Virus record (IMG/VR): IMGVR_UViG_3300027807_000003
Coordinates: 70,333-134,332 of that record
DNA from: a virus
Taxonomy: Duplodnaviria; Caudoviricetes
DNA length: 64,000 nt
Reading direction: 5' to 3' (one strand)
Made by a program: the position numbers and the translations under genes. The number at the start of each line of letters is the position of its first letter. Position 1 is the stretch's first letter. Positions 3,078 through 13,917 of this stretch are shown here, in pieces. The notes beneath the pieces are model-generated. The model was given only the letters and a program-made list of their open reading frames with translations. It searched no databases and was not told the origin of the DNA.

Positions 3078-3829
3078 AAGTATCAGAAATTCTTGATTCT
3101 ATATTTGCCCAGTATCCTTGGTATCGCCGCTTGACAGGTGGTAGATGGATTTTAGTGGACAGTGATTTTAAGGACATTAAAGCCCCACAAACTATCTACC
3201 CTAAATGGGCCCGATATATTGATATCCTCAAAAGAGAAAAATCCATTGGGTATGAAGAGTATAGGCAAGAACAATGGAGTAAGAGTTTGCAACAACTCGA
3301 AAAGTACCAAGGCGAGGTAAATCAACTTAGGCAGGAACTAAGGGAATCCAATGAGAGGGCTAATAATTTAGCCGAAGAGTGCGATCGCCAAATTGCTACC
3401 TATCGACAACCTTACATAGATTTACTTCGGGAGAAAGAGGAGATAAAAAATAAAGCTCTTTTGCTGGAGTGTAGGGCGATCGAGGCAGAGAGAAAAGTAG
3501 GTATTTCCGAAAATACCATTGCTGATCTTAGATCAGAAATCGCAAGACTTGAGGATGAGCAGGCTGTTTACAAAACTGCTTTTGAGCAAGAAAAAAATGA
3601 GGTAAGCAGACTAAGTTTTATTGCCGAACACAAAACCGCCCAGTTAGAAAGTGAACTTAGAAAAGCTCAAGATGAGCTTAATAAACAAAGTAGGATAGGA
3701 GTGGAGCTACAAAATGCTATTGAATATTTAGTAGAAACTGGAGAGAAGAGAATTAATCAACTGGAAAATGATTTAAAAAATGCTCAAGATGAACTTAAAA
3801 AGGCAAAACAATATAGTGCATTAATTTAA
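3074..3829 (+). CDS. Coiled-coil protein
   Basis: Long heptad-rich E/K/Q/L C-terminal region; ATGA overlap with the upstream gene. Confidence 0.65.
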   Translation: MKVSEILDSIFAQYPWYRRLTGGRWILVDSDFKDIKAPQTIYPKWARYIDILKREKSIGYEEYRQEQWSKSLQQLEKYQGEVNQLRQELRESNERANNLAEECDRQIATYRQPYIDLLREKEEIKNKALLLECRAIEAERKVGISENTIADLRSEIARLEDEQAVYKTAFEQEKNEVSRLSFIAEHKTAQLESELRKAQDELNKQSRIGVELQNAIEYLVETGEKRINQLENDLKNAQDELKKAKQYSALI

Positions 3830-9378: not shown

Positions 9379-11259
9379 TTAAGTTTTCACCACTATTGGT
9401 TTTATTCTCTTTGTTTTAGCCGTTTTTGGTTTAACAGCCTTTCTGGTTTTTTTGATAGTGCGTTTTTTGCTGTCTACACCCTCTAGCGATTCAGGTGGCA
9501 CAGGCTTGTCAGTGCGGGTAATATGAGAAAACCATTCATAGTGCTTAATATCTTTTTCATCACAAAAAGCACCGTAATAATCATTTTGTGCAGCATTTGT
9601 ATCAGCGTTTTGTTGAATTTGATAAAGCTTACAACGTTCGTTTAAGCAGTAAAACTCAAGAGCTTTTGGGTGTCTACCTAGTTCCCCACAACAGTGACAT
9701 ATCTGGCTGGAATAAGGAGATGGGGACAAAGTGAAGCTATCTGGTCCCCTAAATCGCCGACATTTCTCCTCCACCAGCGATCGGTATCGTCCCCATCTAG
9801 CATCTAAAATTTCGCGATTTAAATCAGATTGGTGTTCCGCACCATTTGGTTCATATCCTTTACCATCTGCACTTGGTATCGGATCCGGACGCTTCACCAT
9901 CTCGTCTGTCGGCATTTCCTCAATAGTTATTTTCCCAAAGCGGCGTACCAGAATAGTTGAGGATTTATGCAAAAATGCATTGGCGGGTCGCCGGATCTTG
10001 GTTTCATTGATTTTACCTTTTCGGTGGAGCGTTTTTTTGTAATTATTACTATCTCCCCGCAAATGATCCACGGACAACCCTTGCTCTTGGCGCTCCTTGA
10101 TTAATTTTTTCCTATCGCTGCGTTGTCTGGCTAGTTTACGCTCGATTCTTGCTAATTTTCGAGCTTGTTTGGCAGCAAACCGAGGATTTTTGACATGGCT
10201 ACCAGGTTCGTCACTGGACATGAGGTTGATTAGCCCCGTATGGACAGCTATTCCCCGCTTCCGAGGTTTAATTTTGGCTTTTTTACGTACCTGTATTGAT
10301 AATTCTGCCTTTAAATCACTGATTTGCTGCTTAAGCAACTCTTTTTCCACAAACTCCGGAGTCTTTTTCAACTGAGCTTCCAGTTTACGAATTTTAACTT
10401 CCAAAGGATGGGCACTGACAATACACACATACCACCCGGTGGGTTCTTCCTTAATAGTTACCGCCCTAATGGCTCCGGGGGTAGATCGCACCTCTTCGGG
10501 AATTCGCTCATGATTCTTATTTACAAATCTTAGTGATAAAGGATGCTGCTTACCTTCACCATCTACCCATTTACCAGGGAGCCTAAGTCTATCGCCATCA
10601 AACCAGATCTGCTCTGGACTAATGCAATGGAATGATGGCAACATCTCATTCTTTTTAAAATTAGGCATACAAGCTTTTTCTATCTTGGGGTTCAAATAAG
10701 CTTCCCAAGCAGCAACTAAGCGATTAAACACAGTCCCCTTCATCCAAGACGACGGTACAGTGAGTTCCCCCAGTAGTTTTAGTTTCGGCTGACCCTTTTC
10801 TACACGATCCTTATTTATTAGCCGCCGGCGGGAGTCTTCTTCTTCACGCATCAAATCACATCTTGTCTTAGTCAGGTACCCTGTAAGGGTCATAAAAAGG
10901 TCTGGATTTTTGGGTCTAGCCTTATTTTCAGGGTAATGGGACAACAGAGTTGGTTCCTCTGGTAGCATTTTTGGGGGTATGGGGGTGTAGACTCCATTTT
11001 TAATAATTGCAATTTCACAAGTTGGCGATGCCCATGCCCTCTTTTTATTTAAGCGGAGCCTACAGCGGAGAATCCCGTTCATGTTGATTTTTTCTTTTGC
11101 TGCGTTTTTTAACATGAACTCGTAATACCTAAACTGCTGATACTCAATCAGCAACTCTAGCGCCTTGTTCCAAATCCACCTTAAATTAGCTGCATTTCTG
11201 CCAGTAAAGAAATTTTTCTCCCAATCATTCATGTAGATTTTGCACTCAGTCGTTATCAT
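9379..11259 (-). CDS. TnpB/Cas12-family (compact type V-U-like) RNA-guided effector, probably nuclease-dead
   Basis: N-terminal LRWIWNKAL helix, PNFKK and GWYVCI segments; RuvC-I GIAVHTG (Asp replaced by His), RuvC-II ITIEEM, YEPNG..QSDLNREILDARWG, Zn finger SQICHCCG...FYCLNERC, RuvC-III NADTNAAQN; adjacent CRISPR array; no tnpA. Confidence 0.88.
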   Translation of the reverse strand: MITTECKIYMNDWEKNFFTGRNAANLRWIWNKALELLIEYQQFRYYEFMLKNAAKEKINMNGILRCRLRLNKKRAWASPTCEIAIIKNGVYTPIPPKMLPEEPTLLSHYPENKARPKNPDLFMTLTGYLTKTRCDLMREEEDSRRRLINKDRVEKGQPKLKLLGELTVPSSWMKGTVFNRLVAAWEAYLNPKIEKACMPNFKKNEMLPSFHCISPEQIWFDGDRLRLPGKWVDGEGKQHPLSLRFVNKNHERIPEEVRSTPGAIRAVTIKEEPTGWYVCIVSAHPLEVKIRKLEAQLKKTPEFVEKELLKQQISDLKAELSIQVRKKAKIKPRKRGIAVHTGLINLMSSDEPGSHVKNPRFAAKQARKLARIERKLARQRSDRKKLIKERQEQGLSVDHLRGDSNNYKKTLHRKGKINETKIRRPANAFLHKSSTILVRRFGKITIEEMPTDEMVKRPDPIPSADGKGYEPNGAEHQSDLNREILDARWGRYRSLVEEKCRRFRGPDSFTLSPSPYSSQICHCCGELGRHPKALEFYCLNERCKLYQIQQNADTNAAQNDYYGAFCDEKDIKHYEWFSHITRTDKPVPPESLEGVDSKKRTIKKTRKAVKPKTAKTKRIKPIVVKT

Positions 11260-11312
11260 CCCCGTTACCCCTAAACCGTGACATGAACTAATTTAATCCA
11301 AAAAAGAACATC

Positions 11313-11341
11313 TTGCCTTTTTTGAAATTATGGATCATAAT
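11313..11341 (+). promoter_or_regulatory. Sigma70-type promoter for putative tracrRNA/pre-crRNA
   Basis: TTGCCT-N17-CATAAT, divergent from the effector gene. Confidence 0.55.
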
Positions 11342-11347
11342 GTGTTT

Positions 11348-11727
11348 ACTTTGAATTTTTCAAAGTCTACGCGGCTTGGTCTGCGGAAGTTAAAGCTTGT
11401 TCTGAACTTAAGTTCAGTATTTGGGGGACAAAATACCAGTGGGAGTACCCCCAAGCGACCAGTAGGTGAAAGCCCTGGATTGAGACAAGTCCCTCAATGA
11501 GCGGGCCGGAATCCTGCTCCGATCCCGGGCAACCGGAATACCTACACTCTTAGAGCGATCTGCTACCTGAACCTTGACAATTGCGCGCGTGCCACCCTTG
11601 CGATCTTTGCTCTGCAACGATTTTGGGTATCTGCTGTATCTCACGCGGGAATAAACACAGCTTGTTTACCTGAACTTCGGAAACCCTTTCTGGAATTCTT
11701 TCTACGACTGGGTTCTGGAGGGGAGGG
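11348..11727 (+). ncRNA. Putative tracrRNA/scaffold RNA and array leader
   Basis: No credible ORF, GC-richer than its flanks; contains anti-repeat CTTGCGATC (11597-11605) and GCGA-tctg-CTACCTG (11555-11569), both complementary to the repeat 3' end. Boundaries are approximate. Confidence 0.55.
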
Positions 11728-12650
11728 GTGGCGATAGGCTTTAGATGTCTGGGTAGTCGCAAGCTTGTAATGCCCAAACTTTTTGGTGTGCATCCCTAGC
11801 GGTGGCGATAGGCTTTAGATGTCTGGGTAGTCGCAAGTTTACAATAGGCAGATTCTTGATCAGCTAACGCTTAACGTGGCGATAGGCTTTAGATGTCTGG
11901 GTAGTCGCAAGCTCAACCAGCTAATTCCTAGCTATACTGGACAATCAGTGGCGATAGAACTTAGATGTCTGGGTAGTCGCAAGTGCCTATGATCCTCTGT
12001 TCCTTAGAGTGTTGGTGTGCTCTGTGGCGATAAGCCCTAGATATCTGGGTAGTTGCAAGAATACGAGTTATTGCCGCATCTTTATCTAGGTCAACTGTAG
12101 CGATAGGCTCTAGATGTCTGGATAGTCGCAAGAATCACGGTTGGCACGAGAGCGTTTTTCGCTCAATTTCGTGGCGATAGGCCCTAGATGTCTGGGTAGT
12201 CGCAAGCTGATCCATTCTTTCGTCACTTTCCACCCCCAATCCAGGTGGCGATAGGCCCTAGATGTCTGGGTAGTCGCAAGGTTGACATAAGTTACTGAAT
12301 TTAAGTCTCGATTTAATTAGTGGCGATAGGCTCTAGATGTCTGGATAGTCGCAAGTGGAGTTATTGGATTTGGATAAACACCACGAAAAAGTGGTGATAG
12401 GCTTTAGATGTCTGGGTAGTCGCAAGTAAAATTTGAGTGTTTACTTAAATCAGGGGGTTAAAAGTGGCGATCGCACCTAGTAGATGTTAGACAGTCGCAA
12501 GACACAGAATACAGGTTTAAACTTGTTAATGACAGCATTAAAGTCGCGATCGCACTTAAATATTTAGGCAGTTGCAATTCTGACTAATTATTAAAAAAGG
12601 TTAAGATCCGGGAGTGGCGATCGCAAGTGATAGTTCTGAATGATCGCAAG
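11728..12650 (+). CRISPR. CRISPR array, 36-nt repeat GTGGCGATAGGCYYTAGATGTCTGGRTAGTCGCAAG, 13 repeats (last 3 degenerate), 12 spacers of 35-41 nt
   Basis: Repeats start at 11728, 11802, 11876, 11948, 12024, 12097, 12171, 12245, 12320 and 12391; degenerate ones at 12464, 12543 and 12614. Spacers are unique. GTGGC...AAG ends resemble cyanobacterial type V repeats. Confidence 0.96.
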
Positions 12651-13255
12651 TTATCTTCCTGGTTGCCACAATTTTGGGGATGCCTGGCGAAAATCGCAAG
12701 TATCCAGGTCAGGACAAGACAGGGAATAGGGATTGCAAGGGTAAGGAATTTTAGGTCTGAGCGATCGCAGGTCCGAGTATGTCGCAAGTTGAATCGTGAG
12801 CCATCGACTGTTAAAGGTCTAGCGCAGGTTTAGACAATTCCCCAAAAAGTTGTTTTCTCCTGAAAACCTTACCCCACAAAGGTTTTGGTTGCACAAGTAT
12901 TTGTACTTTGATTACGAAACACATAAATTGGGCGTAGGTCGCAAGTCAGCAGGAATTTTATCACTTAGGTTCTCACAGGCAGTTTTAGGATTGGTGGCGA
13001 TCGCTAAGTATTACAGTTTTCTAGTCAAGTAGGAAAGAAAGATCGCAAGCTGTGAACAATTACTTTAAATAGGTTTAGATCGCCAAGGATGAATAAAAAG
13101 ATGAGATCGCAAGTCATGGGATTGGCAAGTCGCAAGACAAATTTCTCTCCCTATTCAGATCGCAAGCTGATCCAAAATGTCAGATAGACTATTTGCTTAA
13201 TGTAGTGCGATCGCAAGAACGAAGGGAACATTCCGAGTTTTGATAGATCGCAAGC
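12651..13255 (+). repeat. Field of minimal repeat 3'-ends ((G)ATCGCAAG / GTCGCAAG) with irregular spacing
   Basis: Motifs end at about 12700, 12739, 12788, 12945, 13049, 13113, 13136, 13166, 13217 and 13255, all on the + strand. Confidence 0.75.
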
Positions 13256-13263
13256 TGAAAAAC

Positions 13264-13917
13264 TTATTTACTGCTTCGTAAAGAAGATAGCCCAAAAGCT
13301 TTGAGAATTTGATTTTCTACCTGAACCTCAACAAATGAGGGAATAGAGCCTTTGGGTGCGAGACTTGGTACGTGATTATTGATCACAGTTCCAGCTTTCC
13401 AACATTTATCAAGAACTGACCAAACTTCTACAGTATCGCCCAATGAGGGGTATTCTGCTAAAAATTTTTCTTGTTCAACTACTGCCGATTTTTTAACTTC
13501 TTGTGGTGCTATCAGAGTAACTTCACCTCCGTAGCATCCAGGTGAAAGCTTTTCCAAGAACTCTGCTACATCGTGACGGTGGCAGGGTTCATTTGGTTTT
13601 TCGTAGCATAAAAGCGTTACGGGTTTTCCTGCTGACAAGGTAGAATTGAGCCAATTAGTAATTTGCTCAGAATTCTTCCTCAGAATATTCAAAAAAGCTG
13701 GTTGGTAACTAACGGTATACAGATTTTTTAAATAAGTCGAATAGTTTTCAACCTCAGCAGTTTTTGCTTTTTTCTCTATGAGTTTCCACTTTTTTAGTAG
13801 CTCCTCAGACGGGGCAAGCATATTTAAGTGTGTCCCAGTGAAATTTTTTGGGGGACGACGGGAGATAGAAATACCTTCCCCGATAATTGGTCCGGAGTAG
13901 TAACTGGTGTGAATCAT
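13264..13917 (-). CDS. DUF488-like protein with extra C-terminal domain
   Basis: IHTSYY...ISISRRPP...LAPSEELL...TLLCYEKPNEPCHRH. Confidence 0.7.
   Translation of the reverse strand: MIHTSYYSGPIIGEGISISRRPPKNFTGTHLNMLAPSEELLKKWKLIEKKAKTAEVENYSTYLKNLYTVSYQPAFLNILRKNSEQITNWLNSTLSAGKPVTLLCYEKPNEPCHRHDVAEFLEKLSPGCYGGEVTLIAPQEVKKSAVVEQEKFLAEYPSLGDTVEVWSVLDKCWKAGTVINNHVPSLAPKGSIPSFVEVQVENQILKAFGLSSLRSSK

Follow-up and report, generated by a model that had tools for sequence, protein, structure and literature searches.

Handles of a repeat's 3' end beyond a phage type V CRISPR array: candidate minimal guides or relic of an eroded array

Why should one end of a CRISPR repeat outlive the rest of it? 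In the Caudoviricetes virus record IMGVR_UViG_3300027807_000003 we analysed a 64,000-nt stretch (positions 70,333 to 134,332; hereafter the window), in which short copies of a repeat's 3' end continue beyond a CRISPR array, through a tail at 12614-13255. An original prediction had read them as a second set of fixed guides. We find that this tail belongs to the phage's type V CRISPR array, of which it forms the old leader-distal end, and that it consists of about 8-10 former repeat-spacer units, with interiors lost or scrambled, partly through internal deletions. The surviving sequence is chiefly the 3' end, as (A)GATCGCAAG or GTCGCAAG; some units also retain the 5' end. Working mini-guides, with at least some units still loading the effector, are narrowly the most likely reading, held at just short of an even chance; an inert relic stands nearly level with it.

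The degenerate end of the array

The recognisable part of the array comprises two groups of repeats.

11728-12426, + strand: ten well-kept 36-nt repeats with 9 spacers, period 71-76
12464-12650, + strand: three full-length degenerate repeats, R11 (12464-12501), R12 (12543-12578) and R13 (12614-12650)

The tail is the degenerate trailer of this 13-repeat array. R11-R13 carry on its period, with repeat starts in register at 12391, 12464, 12543 and 12614 and then GGCGA at 12686, and the tail begins exactly at R13. It is leader-distal: promoter, tracrRNA and best-kept repeats all lie on its left side, and a contig of sequencing run X3 joins the leader and first repeat to 40 letters absent from the window, that is, to a different leader-side spacer. 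None of the small ORFs checked in the tail is credible.

The repeat's 3' end persists past the array on one strand, as predicted. Its last seven letters, TCGCAAG, occur 23 times in the window against 4.67 expected (shuffle maximum 10): in ten array repeats, 11 times within 12621-13254 (all on the + strand), once at 3540 and once on the - strand at 11597. Five further tail copies carry one change (TTGCAAG at 12733, TCGCAGG at 12765, TGGCAAG at 13123, TCGCTAAG ending at 13008 and TCGCCAAG ending at 13087), giving 16 handle-like elements, 16/16 on the + strand; the tail's - strand has none. Across the full 134,332 nt of the genome, TCGCAAG is present in 26 copies on the + strand and 2 on the - strand, only 7 of them in the 133 kb outside array and tail. 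The longer GATCGCAAG has 8 copies in the window (expected 0.26; none of 100 shuffles reaches 8). Seven are on the + strand, at 12619, 12642, 13041, 13105, 13158, 13209 and 13246, and the single - strand copy sits at 11597-11605, of which the handle is indeed the exact reverse complement. The copy at 12619-12627 was absent from the earlier list, and the last copy ends at 13254, not 13255; the tail stops 9 nt short of the next gene's stop codon (13264-13266, - strand).

When 12651-13262 was scanned in an unbiased way with every one of the repeat's 30 seven-letter windows, enrichment appeared in the last three only. TCGCAAG occurred there 9 times exactly and 12 times within one mismatch, against 0.51 expected, and the remaining 27 windows gave 0-1 exact matches each, with the repeat interior at background level. 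Random deletion or uniform decay would spare interior pieces equally, so enrichment of the 3' end alone points to selective retention. In R11-R13 the interior is still detectable (R11, p 0.006; R12, p 0.023; R13 borderline, p 0.06); among 12 other tail units tested it was found in only 1, and the 3' end was detectable in all. The ends of R11-R13 match the canonical repeat at 42/45 positions and the interiors at 37/63 (Fisher p 5e-5). The 3' end accounts for 19/21 (p 0.008 against the interior) and the 5' end, likewise conserved, for 23/24; conservation of the 5' end is beyond what crRNA function alone explains. Register continuity and the window scan together uphold the claim that the motifs derive from the array, with only the part of the repeat predicted to pair with the tracrRNA kept. 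Chance, or HIP1 noise unrelated to the array, could draw on a HIP1-rich genome; we regard it as refuted and give it practically no weight, with 0/100 shuffles attaining the observed counts, copies confined to one strand, so few TCGCAAG elsewhere in 134 kb and enrichment restricted to the 3' end.

Beyond R13 the following elements lead up to the neighbouring gene.

12691-12700, + strand: handle AAATCGCAAG with GGCGA before it, a collapsed repeat at the expected register
12730-12788, + strand: three handle-like elements, ending at 12739 (GGATTGCAAG), 12771 (CGATCGCAGG) and 12788 (ATGTCGCAAG)
12936-12945, + strand: handle AGGTCGCAAG, canonical type
12994-13008, + strand: GTGGCGATCGCTAAG, an old-repeat 5' end in HIP1 form, resembling a handle with one inserted letter
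13040-13049, + strand: handle AGATCGCAAG, with 12 contiguous predicted pairs to 11597-11608
13072-13087, + strand: GGTTTAGATCGCCAAG, repeat positions 9-19 fused to CGC(C)AAG
13104-13136, + strand: handles ending at 13113 (AGATCGCAAG), 13129 (GATTGGCAAG) and 13136 (AAGTCGCAAG)
13157-13174, + strand: handle AGATCGCAAG, with 8 contiguous predicted pairs to anti-repeat a
13204-13254, + strand: GTGCGATCGCAAG, ending at 13217, and TAGATCGCAAG, ending at 13254, together both ends of the last old unit
13264-13917, - strand: convergent DUF488 gene bounding the tail, stop codon 13264-13266

Canonical spacer 7 opens, at 12207-12214, with the same 8 letters, CTGATCCA, that come first after the 13157 handle.

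Reading every handle as a separate unit and as a repeat 3' end needs amendment. The copies at 12619-12627 and 12642-12650 both belong to a single degenerate repeat, R13 (12614-12650, 37 nt), the former to its 5' part and the latter to its 3' part. About 4 of the handle-like elements mark the 5' ends of old repeats, with repeat interior rather than spacer after them. The element at 13072-13087, with an interior score of 10 that 0.6% of background windows reach, illustrates how an internal 11-nt deletion would yield the AGATCGCAAG form.

Such collapse is also what an inert relic would look like. On this alternative the tail is a dead array end, in which deletions removed the interiors and joined GAT to CGCAAG. 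The ends would persist because together they form a HIP1 palindrome (GTG-GCGAT...TCGC-AAG) kept by the genome's mutation or repair bias, and because too little time has passed, and any tail transcription or tracrRNA pairing would be without consequence. We consider this plausible, at somewhat less than an even chance. It accommodates the retention of both repeat ends, beyond the handle alone, the collapsed units that amount to HIP1 plus AAG (12614-12627, 12994-13008 and 13204-13217) and the ratio of 11 exact to 5 one-change copies, which suggests ongoing decay. It sits poorly with the absence of interior fragments, contrary to random deletion, and would mean 640 nt of junk in a phage genome.

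Predicted tracrRNA contacts and the HIP1 bias

The partners of the handles lie upstream of the array.

11313-11341, + strand: promoter-like site TTGCCT-17-CATAAT ahead of the non-coding RNA (consensus match only)
11368-11388, + strand: predicted tracrRNA 5' hairpin, 5-bp stem, loop CUUG (11375-11378)
11372-11528, strand not given by the contigs: putative tracrRNA core, covered by contigs of two metatranscriptome runs (X4, 11372-11523; X6, 11384-11528)
11555-11567, + strand: anti-repeat a (GCGATCTGCTACC)
11597-11608, + strand: anti-repeat b (CTTGCGATCTTT), the element named in the original prediction

The promoter-like site at 11313-11341 overlaps a divergent promoter-like site of the effector gene.

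The hairpin loop, CUUG, is complementary to the repeat's last four letters, CAAG. We compared four loci, that of the window and three related ones (CL131, L082 and L081). The hairpin motif is conserved in 4/4, 20/20 stem cells pair, and 4/5 stem pairs change on both sides. Loop and repeat end covary in 4/4 loci, CUUG occurring with CAAG ends in three and CUUU with AAAG in L081. The 16 handle-like elements end in CAAG (14), CAGG (1) or TAAG (1), and we judge the two exceptions wobble-compatible with the loop.

Anti-repeat a is predicted to pair with the canonical GGTAG/TCGC around a 4-nt bulge and with the tail-type (C)AGATCGC without one, over 6-8 bp. Contiguous pairs there number 6-8 for tail handles against 4 for canonical repeats, in the register (-5..-11) also used by the anti-repeats of CL131, L082 and L081. 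At anti-repeat b the tail handles reach 9-12 contiguous pairs against 7 for the canonical repeat end, and the reported 12-nt match of 13038-13049 to 11597-11608 was recovered. Better pairing by the tail handles than by the canonical repeat, as originally proposed, is thus found at both sites. The role given to 11597 as the tracrRNA anti-repeat is less secure: the complementarity is there, and the family comparison places the main contacts at the loop (11375-11378) and at 11555-11567. Only 2/4 loci have a 7-nt element resembling the one at 11597, the CL131 counterpart CTTGCCA covarying with TGGCAAG, and neither L082 nor L081 has one. We infer from these comparisons that the surviving 9-10 letters are the part of the repeat used by a Cas12p-like ribonucleoprotein. 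Folding the tracrRNA region as a single sequence gave nothing distinctive (z -1.4 and -1.8), and Rfam matched no family. Our scan found no terminator-like site on the + strand between array and tail, and none on either strand of 12600-13263.

The reading of the tail handles is confounded by HIP1 bias. The motif (GCGATCGC) has 191 sites in 134 kb, and four full sites fall in the tail where 0.9 would be expected (p 0.014). The GCGATC found in both anti-repeats is, through the palindrome, complementary to any GATCGC. Genome-wide, 49% of TCGC are preceded by GA, compared with 7/11 in the tail. HIP1 can account for the GA part of the extra complementarity and, as the original caveat had it, not for the AAG, which is outside the ten commonest triplets after GATCGC genome-wide. 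Moreover, GATCGCAAG is found only twice in the genome outside the tail, and just 2/7 tail copies lie inside a full HIP1, against 75% of GATCGC sites elsewhere (p 0.013). These figures cut both ways for an inert relic: the abundance of HIP1, its excess in the tail and the GA prefixes speak for it, whereas the AAG, present or wobble-equivalent in 16/16 elements, is left unexplained by HIP1, as is the low share of GATCGCAAG within full HIP1 sites.

The tail could instead act as DNA, serving replication, partition or packaging as a set of iterons or as a site rich in methylation targets. Genes for Dam methylase and DnaB sit behind the DUF488 gene, and the tail has 11 GATC in 642 nt against 3.2 expected (p 5e-4). 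We think this very improbable: the motif is the array repeat's own end, in the array's strand and register, and the handles themselves bring in the excess of GATC. The cumulative GC skew does not turn at 82.9-83.6 kb, and no AT-rich unwinding stretch or inverted arrangement was noted.

Effector, targets and sequence variation

What the handles might load is encoded on the opposite strand.

9379-11259, - strand: 626-aa type V effector P0001, Cas12p/V-U2-like (Pfam, NCBIfam, PDB match and alignment)

P0001 has a Pfam Cas12f1-like TNB match and scores 170.5 bits with the NCBIfam C2c8 model (NF038192), below its cut-off of 350; judged by its sequence it is related to type V-U2 (C2c8), yet not a member by that model. 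Its nearest solved relative is Cas12p (PDB 9jfs, E 3e-32, query residues 164-572). RuvC-I reads GIAVHTG, where 7/7 relatives and Cas12p have GxDPG. The RuvC-I Asp is absent, with Ala or His at its position; the Glu of RuvC-II and the Asp of RuvC-III are retained. Run X3 differs from the window at nine listed effector sites, in eight codons; six are third-position, seven synonymous by our reading, and Ala338 is kept. As these changes are mostly third-position or synonymous and Ala338 is retained, the Asp-less effector appears to be under selection.

In the reading of working mini-guides, the tail would be read through as part of the pre-crRNA. A handle would contact the tracrRNA at two places, its CAAG in a 4-bp pseudoknot with the hairpin loop CUUG and the preceding letters in a duplex with the anti-repeat GCGATCT(G). 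At least some of the units would load the effector, as fixed minimal guides behind a renewable array. Because the effector lacks the RuvC-I Asp, these guides would direct binding, not cutting. Since the predicted requirements of a crRNA are still present in the units, the handles may still act in this way. Our tentative preference draws on register continuity, selective 3'-end retention, retention of the pseudoknot letters, covariation, the 10-nt repeat part modelled for Cas12p, better pairing, the lack of a terminator-like site and of a credible ORF, the Cas12k precedent, the tail-less array ends of CL131 and L081 and the apparent selection on the Asp-less effector. It is tempered by the missing targets, changed handles, short gaps, handles that are old 5' ends, 5'-end conservation and HIP1. 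Five of the 16 handles carry a change, and 5/16 have fewer than 17 nt before the next handle-like element.

No target of a tail segment was found in the phage's own genome, the phage and plasmid collections or 401 cyanobacterial genomes. In the own genome, the best 16- and 20-nt matches of 16 tail and 12 canonical guides were no better than those of 280 shuffles. The phage collection held no target for tail segments, and the plasmid collection only a chance-level guide match. The cyanobacterial genomes likewise gave only chance-level guide matches, in unrelated genes, short matches being below the reach of the search. Recurrent short cyanobacterial matches (to the segment after 12945, spacer 7 and spacer 8) were set aside as chance, with unrelated genes and flanks; a plasmid match to R12 (E 0.1) was not an array. 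In four sequencing runs, 4/12 canonical spacers had non-array matches against 0 of about 14 tail segments (p 0.03). Loose ends in run X2 bracket spacers 2 and 3 as matches outside an array, and the 5' flanks of three natural spacer matches are ATT, ACT and CGT, each with T at -1; none is the GTN that marks Cas12p systems beside thioredoxin dependence. No RNA contig in the runs covers array or tail, which is no evidence of silence. The failure to find targets in the collections and genomes searched favours an inert relic. So does tail divergence from X3 (6/215 positions), close to a rough estimate for effector synonymous sites; the two exact handles that were covered contain none of these differences against an expectation of 0.4, a comparison with no power.

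Instead of supplying guides, the tail might regulate at the RNA level: a multi-handle transcript, or antisense RNA from convergent DUF488-dam-dnaB read-through, would titrate tracrRNA, effector or crRNA handles and thereby tune the system. Many tracrRNA-complementary sites on one strand, convergent genes and the absence of terminator-like sites in 12600-13263 would suit it. In addition, 3 of 62 guide near-matches in the phage genome cluster at the effector's promoter or 5' end (11119, 11208 and 11323; Poisson 2e-4 if the region is taken as pre-specified, when it was in fact picked after looking). The seed-level test was not significant (5 against a mean of 2.0, top 7.5% of windows), and for both it and the 62 near-matches the guide set had two tail guides at 13013 and 13088 instead of 13008 and 13087. 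We rate this explanation improbable.

Of the relatives, CL131 and L081, the two with a visible array end, have no handle tail (2/2), and the last repeat of L081 has lost its 3' end, the reverse of the pattern in the window. Wider searches for relatives returned no DNA match to the locus in the phage collection, no repeat-pattern match in the viral contig collection and no syntenic phage with DnaB and a 644-aa neighbour as queries. A protein word search recovered only the query, the genome contig collection gave generic TnpB C-terminal matches only, and the plasmid collection gave no protein match. One weak match among the 401 cyanobacterial genomes was rejected, its 64-repeat array having a different repeat and probably belonging to another system.

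Should the handles work, a type V array may shed all but about 10 repeat letters and yet supply guides, and guide banks of this kind would be escaping array finders. The phage would then carry a Cas12 that only binds, together with fixed guides, and the Cas12p family would gain a minimal crRNA design from nature. A bolder and unlikely version is a bank of about 10 hard-wired minimal crRNAs (10-nt handle plus guide), with a 4-bp pseudoknot and an anti-repeat helix of 6-8 bp by which they would load a Cas12p-like protein defective in RuvC-I, the complex binding rather than cutting host or rival genes: natural multiplex CRISPR interference for host takeover or phage competition. Should they be inert, the locus would be a clear case of a HIP1-rich genome eroding an array from inside out. 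Either way, it offers a testable tracrRNA model, hairpin-loop pseudoknot plus anti-repeat, for a little-studied group of phage-borne effectors.

Comparison with known systems

Ordinary CRISPR arrays usually have one decayed terminal repeat, often at the 3' end. The tail resembles such degenerate ends in being leader-distal and in decaying with distance (R11-R13); it differs from them, L081 being of the ordinary type, in having about 10 units with the 3' end best kept. CreA/CreTA and CreR degenerate mini-CRISPRs and phage solitary repeat units (RNA anti-CRISPRs) are repeat-like remnants that carry short or partial guides and either exploit an effector or block it. Those are single units with a known partner, unlike the run of units seen here, for which no target was found.

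The parallel originally drawn was with Cas12k transposons, and its core is sound. In these type V-K elements, truncated repeat-spacer units (att-crRNA, or 'delocalised crRNA') retain only the tracrRNA-pairing part of the repeat and lie at or beyond the array end (10.1101/2021.02.06.429022). The elements are cyanobacterial, with arrays probably filled by host type I-D adaptation, and each has one att-targeting unit, whose 17-bp spacer perfectly matches a target in a tRNA gene with a GTN PAM (10.1101/2021.02.06.429022). The tail handles likewise keep only the predicted tracrRNA-pairing part and sit at the array end. They differ in number (11-16), in having no target found and in being carried by a virus, with no Tn7 genes at a locus whose neighbours are DUF488, Dam and DnaB. 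Since the complete virus record has no match to TniQ or Cas1, the locus is not a CAST.

Cas12p ('Cas12 hacker', type V-P) is phage-associated, with 36-37-nt repeats and a long tracrRNA (10.1101/2025.01.20.633832). In its structure, a 10-nt repeat part and a 17-nt guide are modelled, and crRNA -1..-4 forms a pseudoknot with tracrRNA nt 7-10, AAAC:UUUG (10.1101/2025.01.20.633832). The window locus shares effector homology (9jfs), phage carriage, a repeat of this length, a putative long tracrRNA and a predicted pseudoknot of the repeat's last 4 nt with the tracrRNA 5' part, here CAAG:CUUG. Cas12p cuts DNA and keeps the RuvC-I Asp, where P0001 has Ala or His, and the parts of the source seen describe no tail of handles (10.1101/2025.01.20.633832).

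A further comparison is with the type V-U2 locus of cyanophage vB_AphaS-CL131, whose description reports that no tracrRNA was found (PMC6293099). Its array follows the gene on the same strand and ends in a truncated 5' half repeat, unlike that of the window. The two share a TnpB-like effector (29% identity over 36% of the query), 36-nt repeats ending in GGCAAG in CL131, the tracrRNA 5' hairpin and a stretch of 7 nt complementary to the repeat end, which in CL131 lies about 120 nt before the array.

A tail of repeat 3' ends behind the array

The virus record (134,332 nt, with the window as its final 64 kb; CheckV completeness 100%; 42% G+C) carries 191 copies of the cyanobacterial palindrome HIP1, GCGATCGC. 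Its type V CRISPR array and the tail beyond it comprise the following features:

11728-12426, array of ten clean 36-nt repeats
12464-12501, 12543-12578 and 12614-12650, full-length degenerate repeats R11, R12 and R13, in register with the array
12614-12627, 12994-13008 and 13204-13217, units with a HIP1-type 5' end, GTGGCGATCGC, then (T)AAG
13072-13087, GGTTTAGATCGCCAAG, sole one of 12 tested tail units with a detectable repeat interior
right of the tail, minus strand, DUF488, Dam methylase, DnaB, then a 644-aa protein without known family

We identify 14 further handle-like elements (surviving repeat 3' ends) between R13 and 13254, 16 in all, which bears out the original prediction of a run of such handles at 12614-13255. 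Its first two handles are, more exactly, both ends of R13, where the finding begins because R11-R13 continue the array in register. Copies were not chosen by motif, since every seven-letter window of the repeat was scanned over 12651-13262. Enrichment is restricted to the last three windows; TCGCAAG occurs 9 times exactly and 12 times with at most one mismatch (0.51 expected), and the remaining 27 windows have 0-1 exact copies each. Chance has a next to negligible probability as the source of the motif.

We tentatively propose, at a little short of an even chance, that the tail consists of working minimal crRNA units, a reading favoured by this sharply asymmetric retention. The main alternative, an inert relic, is a serious contender that also falls below an even chance, and conservation of the repeat 5' end too is on its side. 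In R11-R13, agreement with the canonical repeat is 42/45 at the two ends versus 37/63 in the interior (p 5e-5), and 19/21 at the 3' end by itself (p 0.008). Lesions in 5/16 handles and overly close spacing of 5/16 likewise point to a relic. Element endings are CAAG (14), CAGG (1) and TAAG (1); with the last two judged wobble-compatible, the pseudoknot letters are intact in 16/16 elements, which argues for working mini-guides.

The tail's anatomy is well supported: about 8-10 old units form a degenerate trailer. The unit at 13072-13087 fuses repeat positions 9-19 straight to CGC(C)AAG, and an internal 11-nt deletion would therefore yield the AGATCGCAAG form; together with the HIP1-type 5' ends, this junction points to at least two routes of origin for GATCGCAAG. 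Fifteen letters, TCGCAAGCTGATCCA, are identical at 12200-12214 (canonical unit 7) and 13160-13174 (a tail unit), implying partial duplication or a shared seed.

HIP1 is a confounder that favours the relic. As originally cautioned, the bias touches part of the motif, with GA preceding 49% of TCGC genome-wide, and full HIP1 sites number 4 in the tail against 0.9 expected (p 0.014). They surround only 2/7 tail copies of GATCGCAAG, however, versus 75% of GATCGC sites elsewhere (p 0.013), and the AAG of the handles is unexplained by HIP1. That the tail serves as a DNA-level site is very improbable.

A candidate tracrRNA and its pairing with the handles

Metatranscriptome contigs from two runs cover 11372-11523 and 11384-11528, giving neither strand nor ends. 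The candidate tracrRNA region contains:

11313-11341, promoter-like site
11368-11388, tracrRNA 5' hairpin (in related loci, L085:4625-4645, L082:2279-2298 and L081:7796-7815)
11555-11567, GCGATCTGCTACC, anti-repeat counterpart

The motif TACGCGGCTTGGTCTGCGGAA at 11368 recurs in cyanophage vB_AphaS-CL131 (L085:4625), L082 (2279) and L081 (7796). Across the four loci the 5-bp hairpin stem pairs in 20/20 cells, with 4/5 pairs changed on both sides. The loop is CUUG in the three loci with a CAAG repeat end and CUUU in L081, where the end is AAAG; across these four loci, the loop covaries with the repeat's last four letters. The corresponding stretch of the relatives falls close to the effector gene's 3' end (coding for ..YRAWAWE.. 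in CL131), a position similar to that of TnpB guide RNAs, which overlap tnpB. In the window, where the effector gene has the opposite orientation, the motif persists outside any coding sequence.

For Cas12p, a pseudoknot of tracrRNA nt 7-10 with crRNA -1..-4 is described, and the modelled crRNA is limited to 10 nt of repeat and 17 nt of guide (10.1101/2025.01.20.633832); this 10-nt repeat part favours working mini-guides. A second contact is predicted between repeat positions -5 up to -11 and CCAACTA (CL131) or CAACC (L082), with CAATCCC, read by eye, in L081. Against 11555-11567, canonical repeats need a 4-nt bulge to pair and reach 4 contiguous pairs (from -4), whereas GATCGC-type tail handles pair at 6-8 contiguous positions. 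At 11597-11608, 7 pairs form with canonical repeats versus 9-12 with tail handles, in line with the better anti-repeat match claimed originally. In CL131 this second element has a counterpart that covaries (CTTGCCA with TGGCAAG); locus comparison shows none in L082 or L081. Both anti-repeats include GCGATC, and palindromy lets this sequence pair with any GATCGC. Tail handles are the better match for either candidate anti-repeat; this fit, in the family's usual register, favours working mini-guides, as does the lack of any predicted terminator before the tail. The relic reading draws on the lack of RNA evidence for the tail, and a titrating or regulatory RNA is improbable.

Between the CL131 effector gene and array (L085:4766-4805) lie a repeat-end look-alike, GTTGGCAAG, and the complement CTTGCCA, with a hairpin predicted between them; no tracrRNA is reported in the CL131 paper (PMC6293099). 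In the window, 11591-11605 (GCCAC-C-CTTGCGATC) complements both the handle GATCGCAAG and the repeat 5' end GTGGC, and one tracrRNA segment could therefore clamp both ends of a spacer. No counterpart of this segment was seen in CL131.

Effector, targets and relatives

9379-11259, minus strand, type V effector P0001, TnpB-like, 626 aa, Pfam Cas12f1-like TNB domain
10240-10251, codons 336-342, P0001 RuvC-I, GIAVHTG

P0001 scores 170.5 bits against NCBIfam C2c8/V-U2, under the cut-off of 350, and its nearest solved structure is Cas12p (9jfs; E 3e-32, residues 164-572). A whole-library search returned 869 proteins at E <= 0.001 and only 9 at E <= 1e-30; apart from the phage's own P0002, the closest is P0003 (39% identity), labelled a TnpB-family protein of Anabaena sp. 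90. In an eight-protein alignment every member has the RuvC-II Glu and the RuvC-III Asp, and GIAVHTG in P0001 replaces the GxDPG of the 7/7 others. Neither Cas1 nor TniQ was found in the virus record. A variant in sequencing run X3 shows 9 listed differences in 8 codons of the effector gene, 6 at third positions and 7 synonymous by reading of codons; Ala338 is retained, the change at 10246 being synonymous. Purifying selection thus appears to act on the Asp-less effector, which favours working mini-guides; the protein probably binds rather than cuts.

The X3 tail differs at 6/215 positions (12766-12980), with both exact handles in that stretch unchanged, and run X2 pieces at 11884-12255 and 12567-12912 are identical to the window. 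One X3 contig continues from leader and first repeat into 40 letters absent from the window, a different leader-side spacer. Contigs aligning only to spacers 2, 3 and part of 4 (X2) or 8 (X3 DNA and X6 RNA) have non-repeat flanks and are therefore natural matches outside an array:

11838-11875, spacer 2
11912-11947, spacer 3
11984-12019, part of spacer 4
12281-12319, spacer 8

In the sequencing runs, such matches exist for 4/12 canonical spacers versus 0/about 14 tail segments (p 0.03). Their 5' flanks are ATT, ACT and CGT (T at -1 in 3/3), not the GTN reported for Cas12p (10.1101/2025.01.20.633832); in the match to spacer 8, spacer positions 5-7 are mismatched. Canonical and tail guides alike fit the phage's own genome no better than shuffled ones, and guides found no target in the phage collection and only chance-level matches in the plasmid collection and, in unrelated genes, in 401 cyanobacterial genomes. 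The targets once anticipated for the tail segments thus failed to appear, in keeping with a relic.

Array and tail guides have 62 near-matches (<=3 mismatches over 16 letters) to the phage genome, of which 3 fall in the effector promoter and first 140 nt (11119-11338). Canonical spacer 7 and the guide after 13166 both begin with CTGATCCA, a near match to the -10 region of the divergent promoters (minus strand, from 11337 down); significance was not reached in a seed-level control.

Neither of the two relatives with a visible array end carries a handle tail: in CL131 the final repeat is cut down to its 5' half and no handles follow, and L081 has three repeats, the last keeping its interior and losing its 3' end, followed by a gene. 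The L082 array stops at the contig edge. Distant effector homologues occur in Cr-LKS4 and RM-2018a. No array was seen upstream of the gene in Cylindrospermopsis phage Cr-LKS4; two unit copies about 360 nt apart lie there (L086:2290-2900), each a promoter-like site and conserved structured stretch followed by copy-specific sequence, and could be two stand-alone guide RNAs replacing an array. In a cyanobacterial genome (G337:C48, L083/L106), a 482-aa TnpB-like gene adjoins an array whose 37-nt repeat ends CTGAAAG and is present in at least 64 copies; the array is probably of another CRISPR type.

Comparison with known systems

The phage-borne Cas12p system (10.1101/2025.01.20.633832) and the V-U2 locus of CL131 (PMC6293099) are already known. 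In the literature consulted on Cas12k, Cas12p and CL131, we saw no series of 11-16 minimal handles following an array whose effector is Cas12p-like and lacks the RuvC-I Asp. Truncated repeat-spacer units are described for Cas12k (10.1101/2021.02.06.429022), a precedent that favours working mini-guides; the present locus differs in its effector and in its number of handles.
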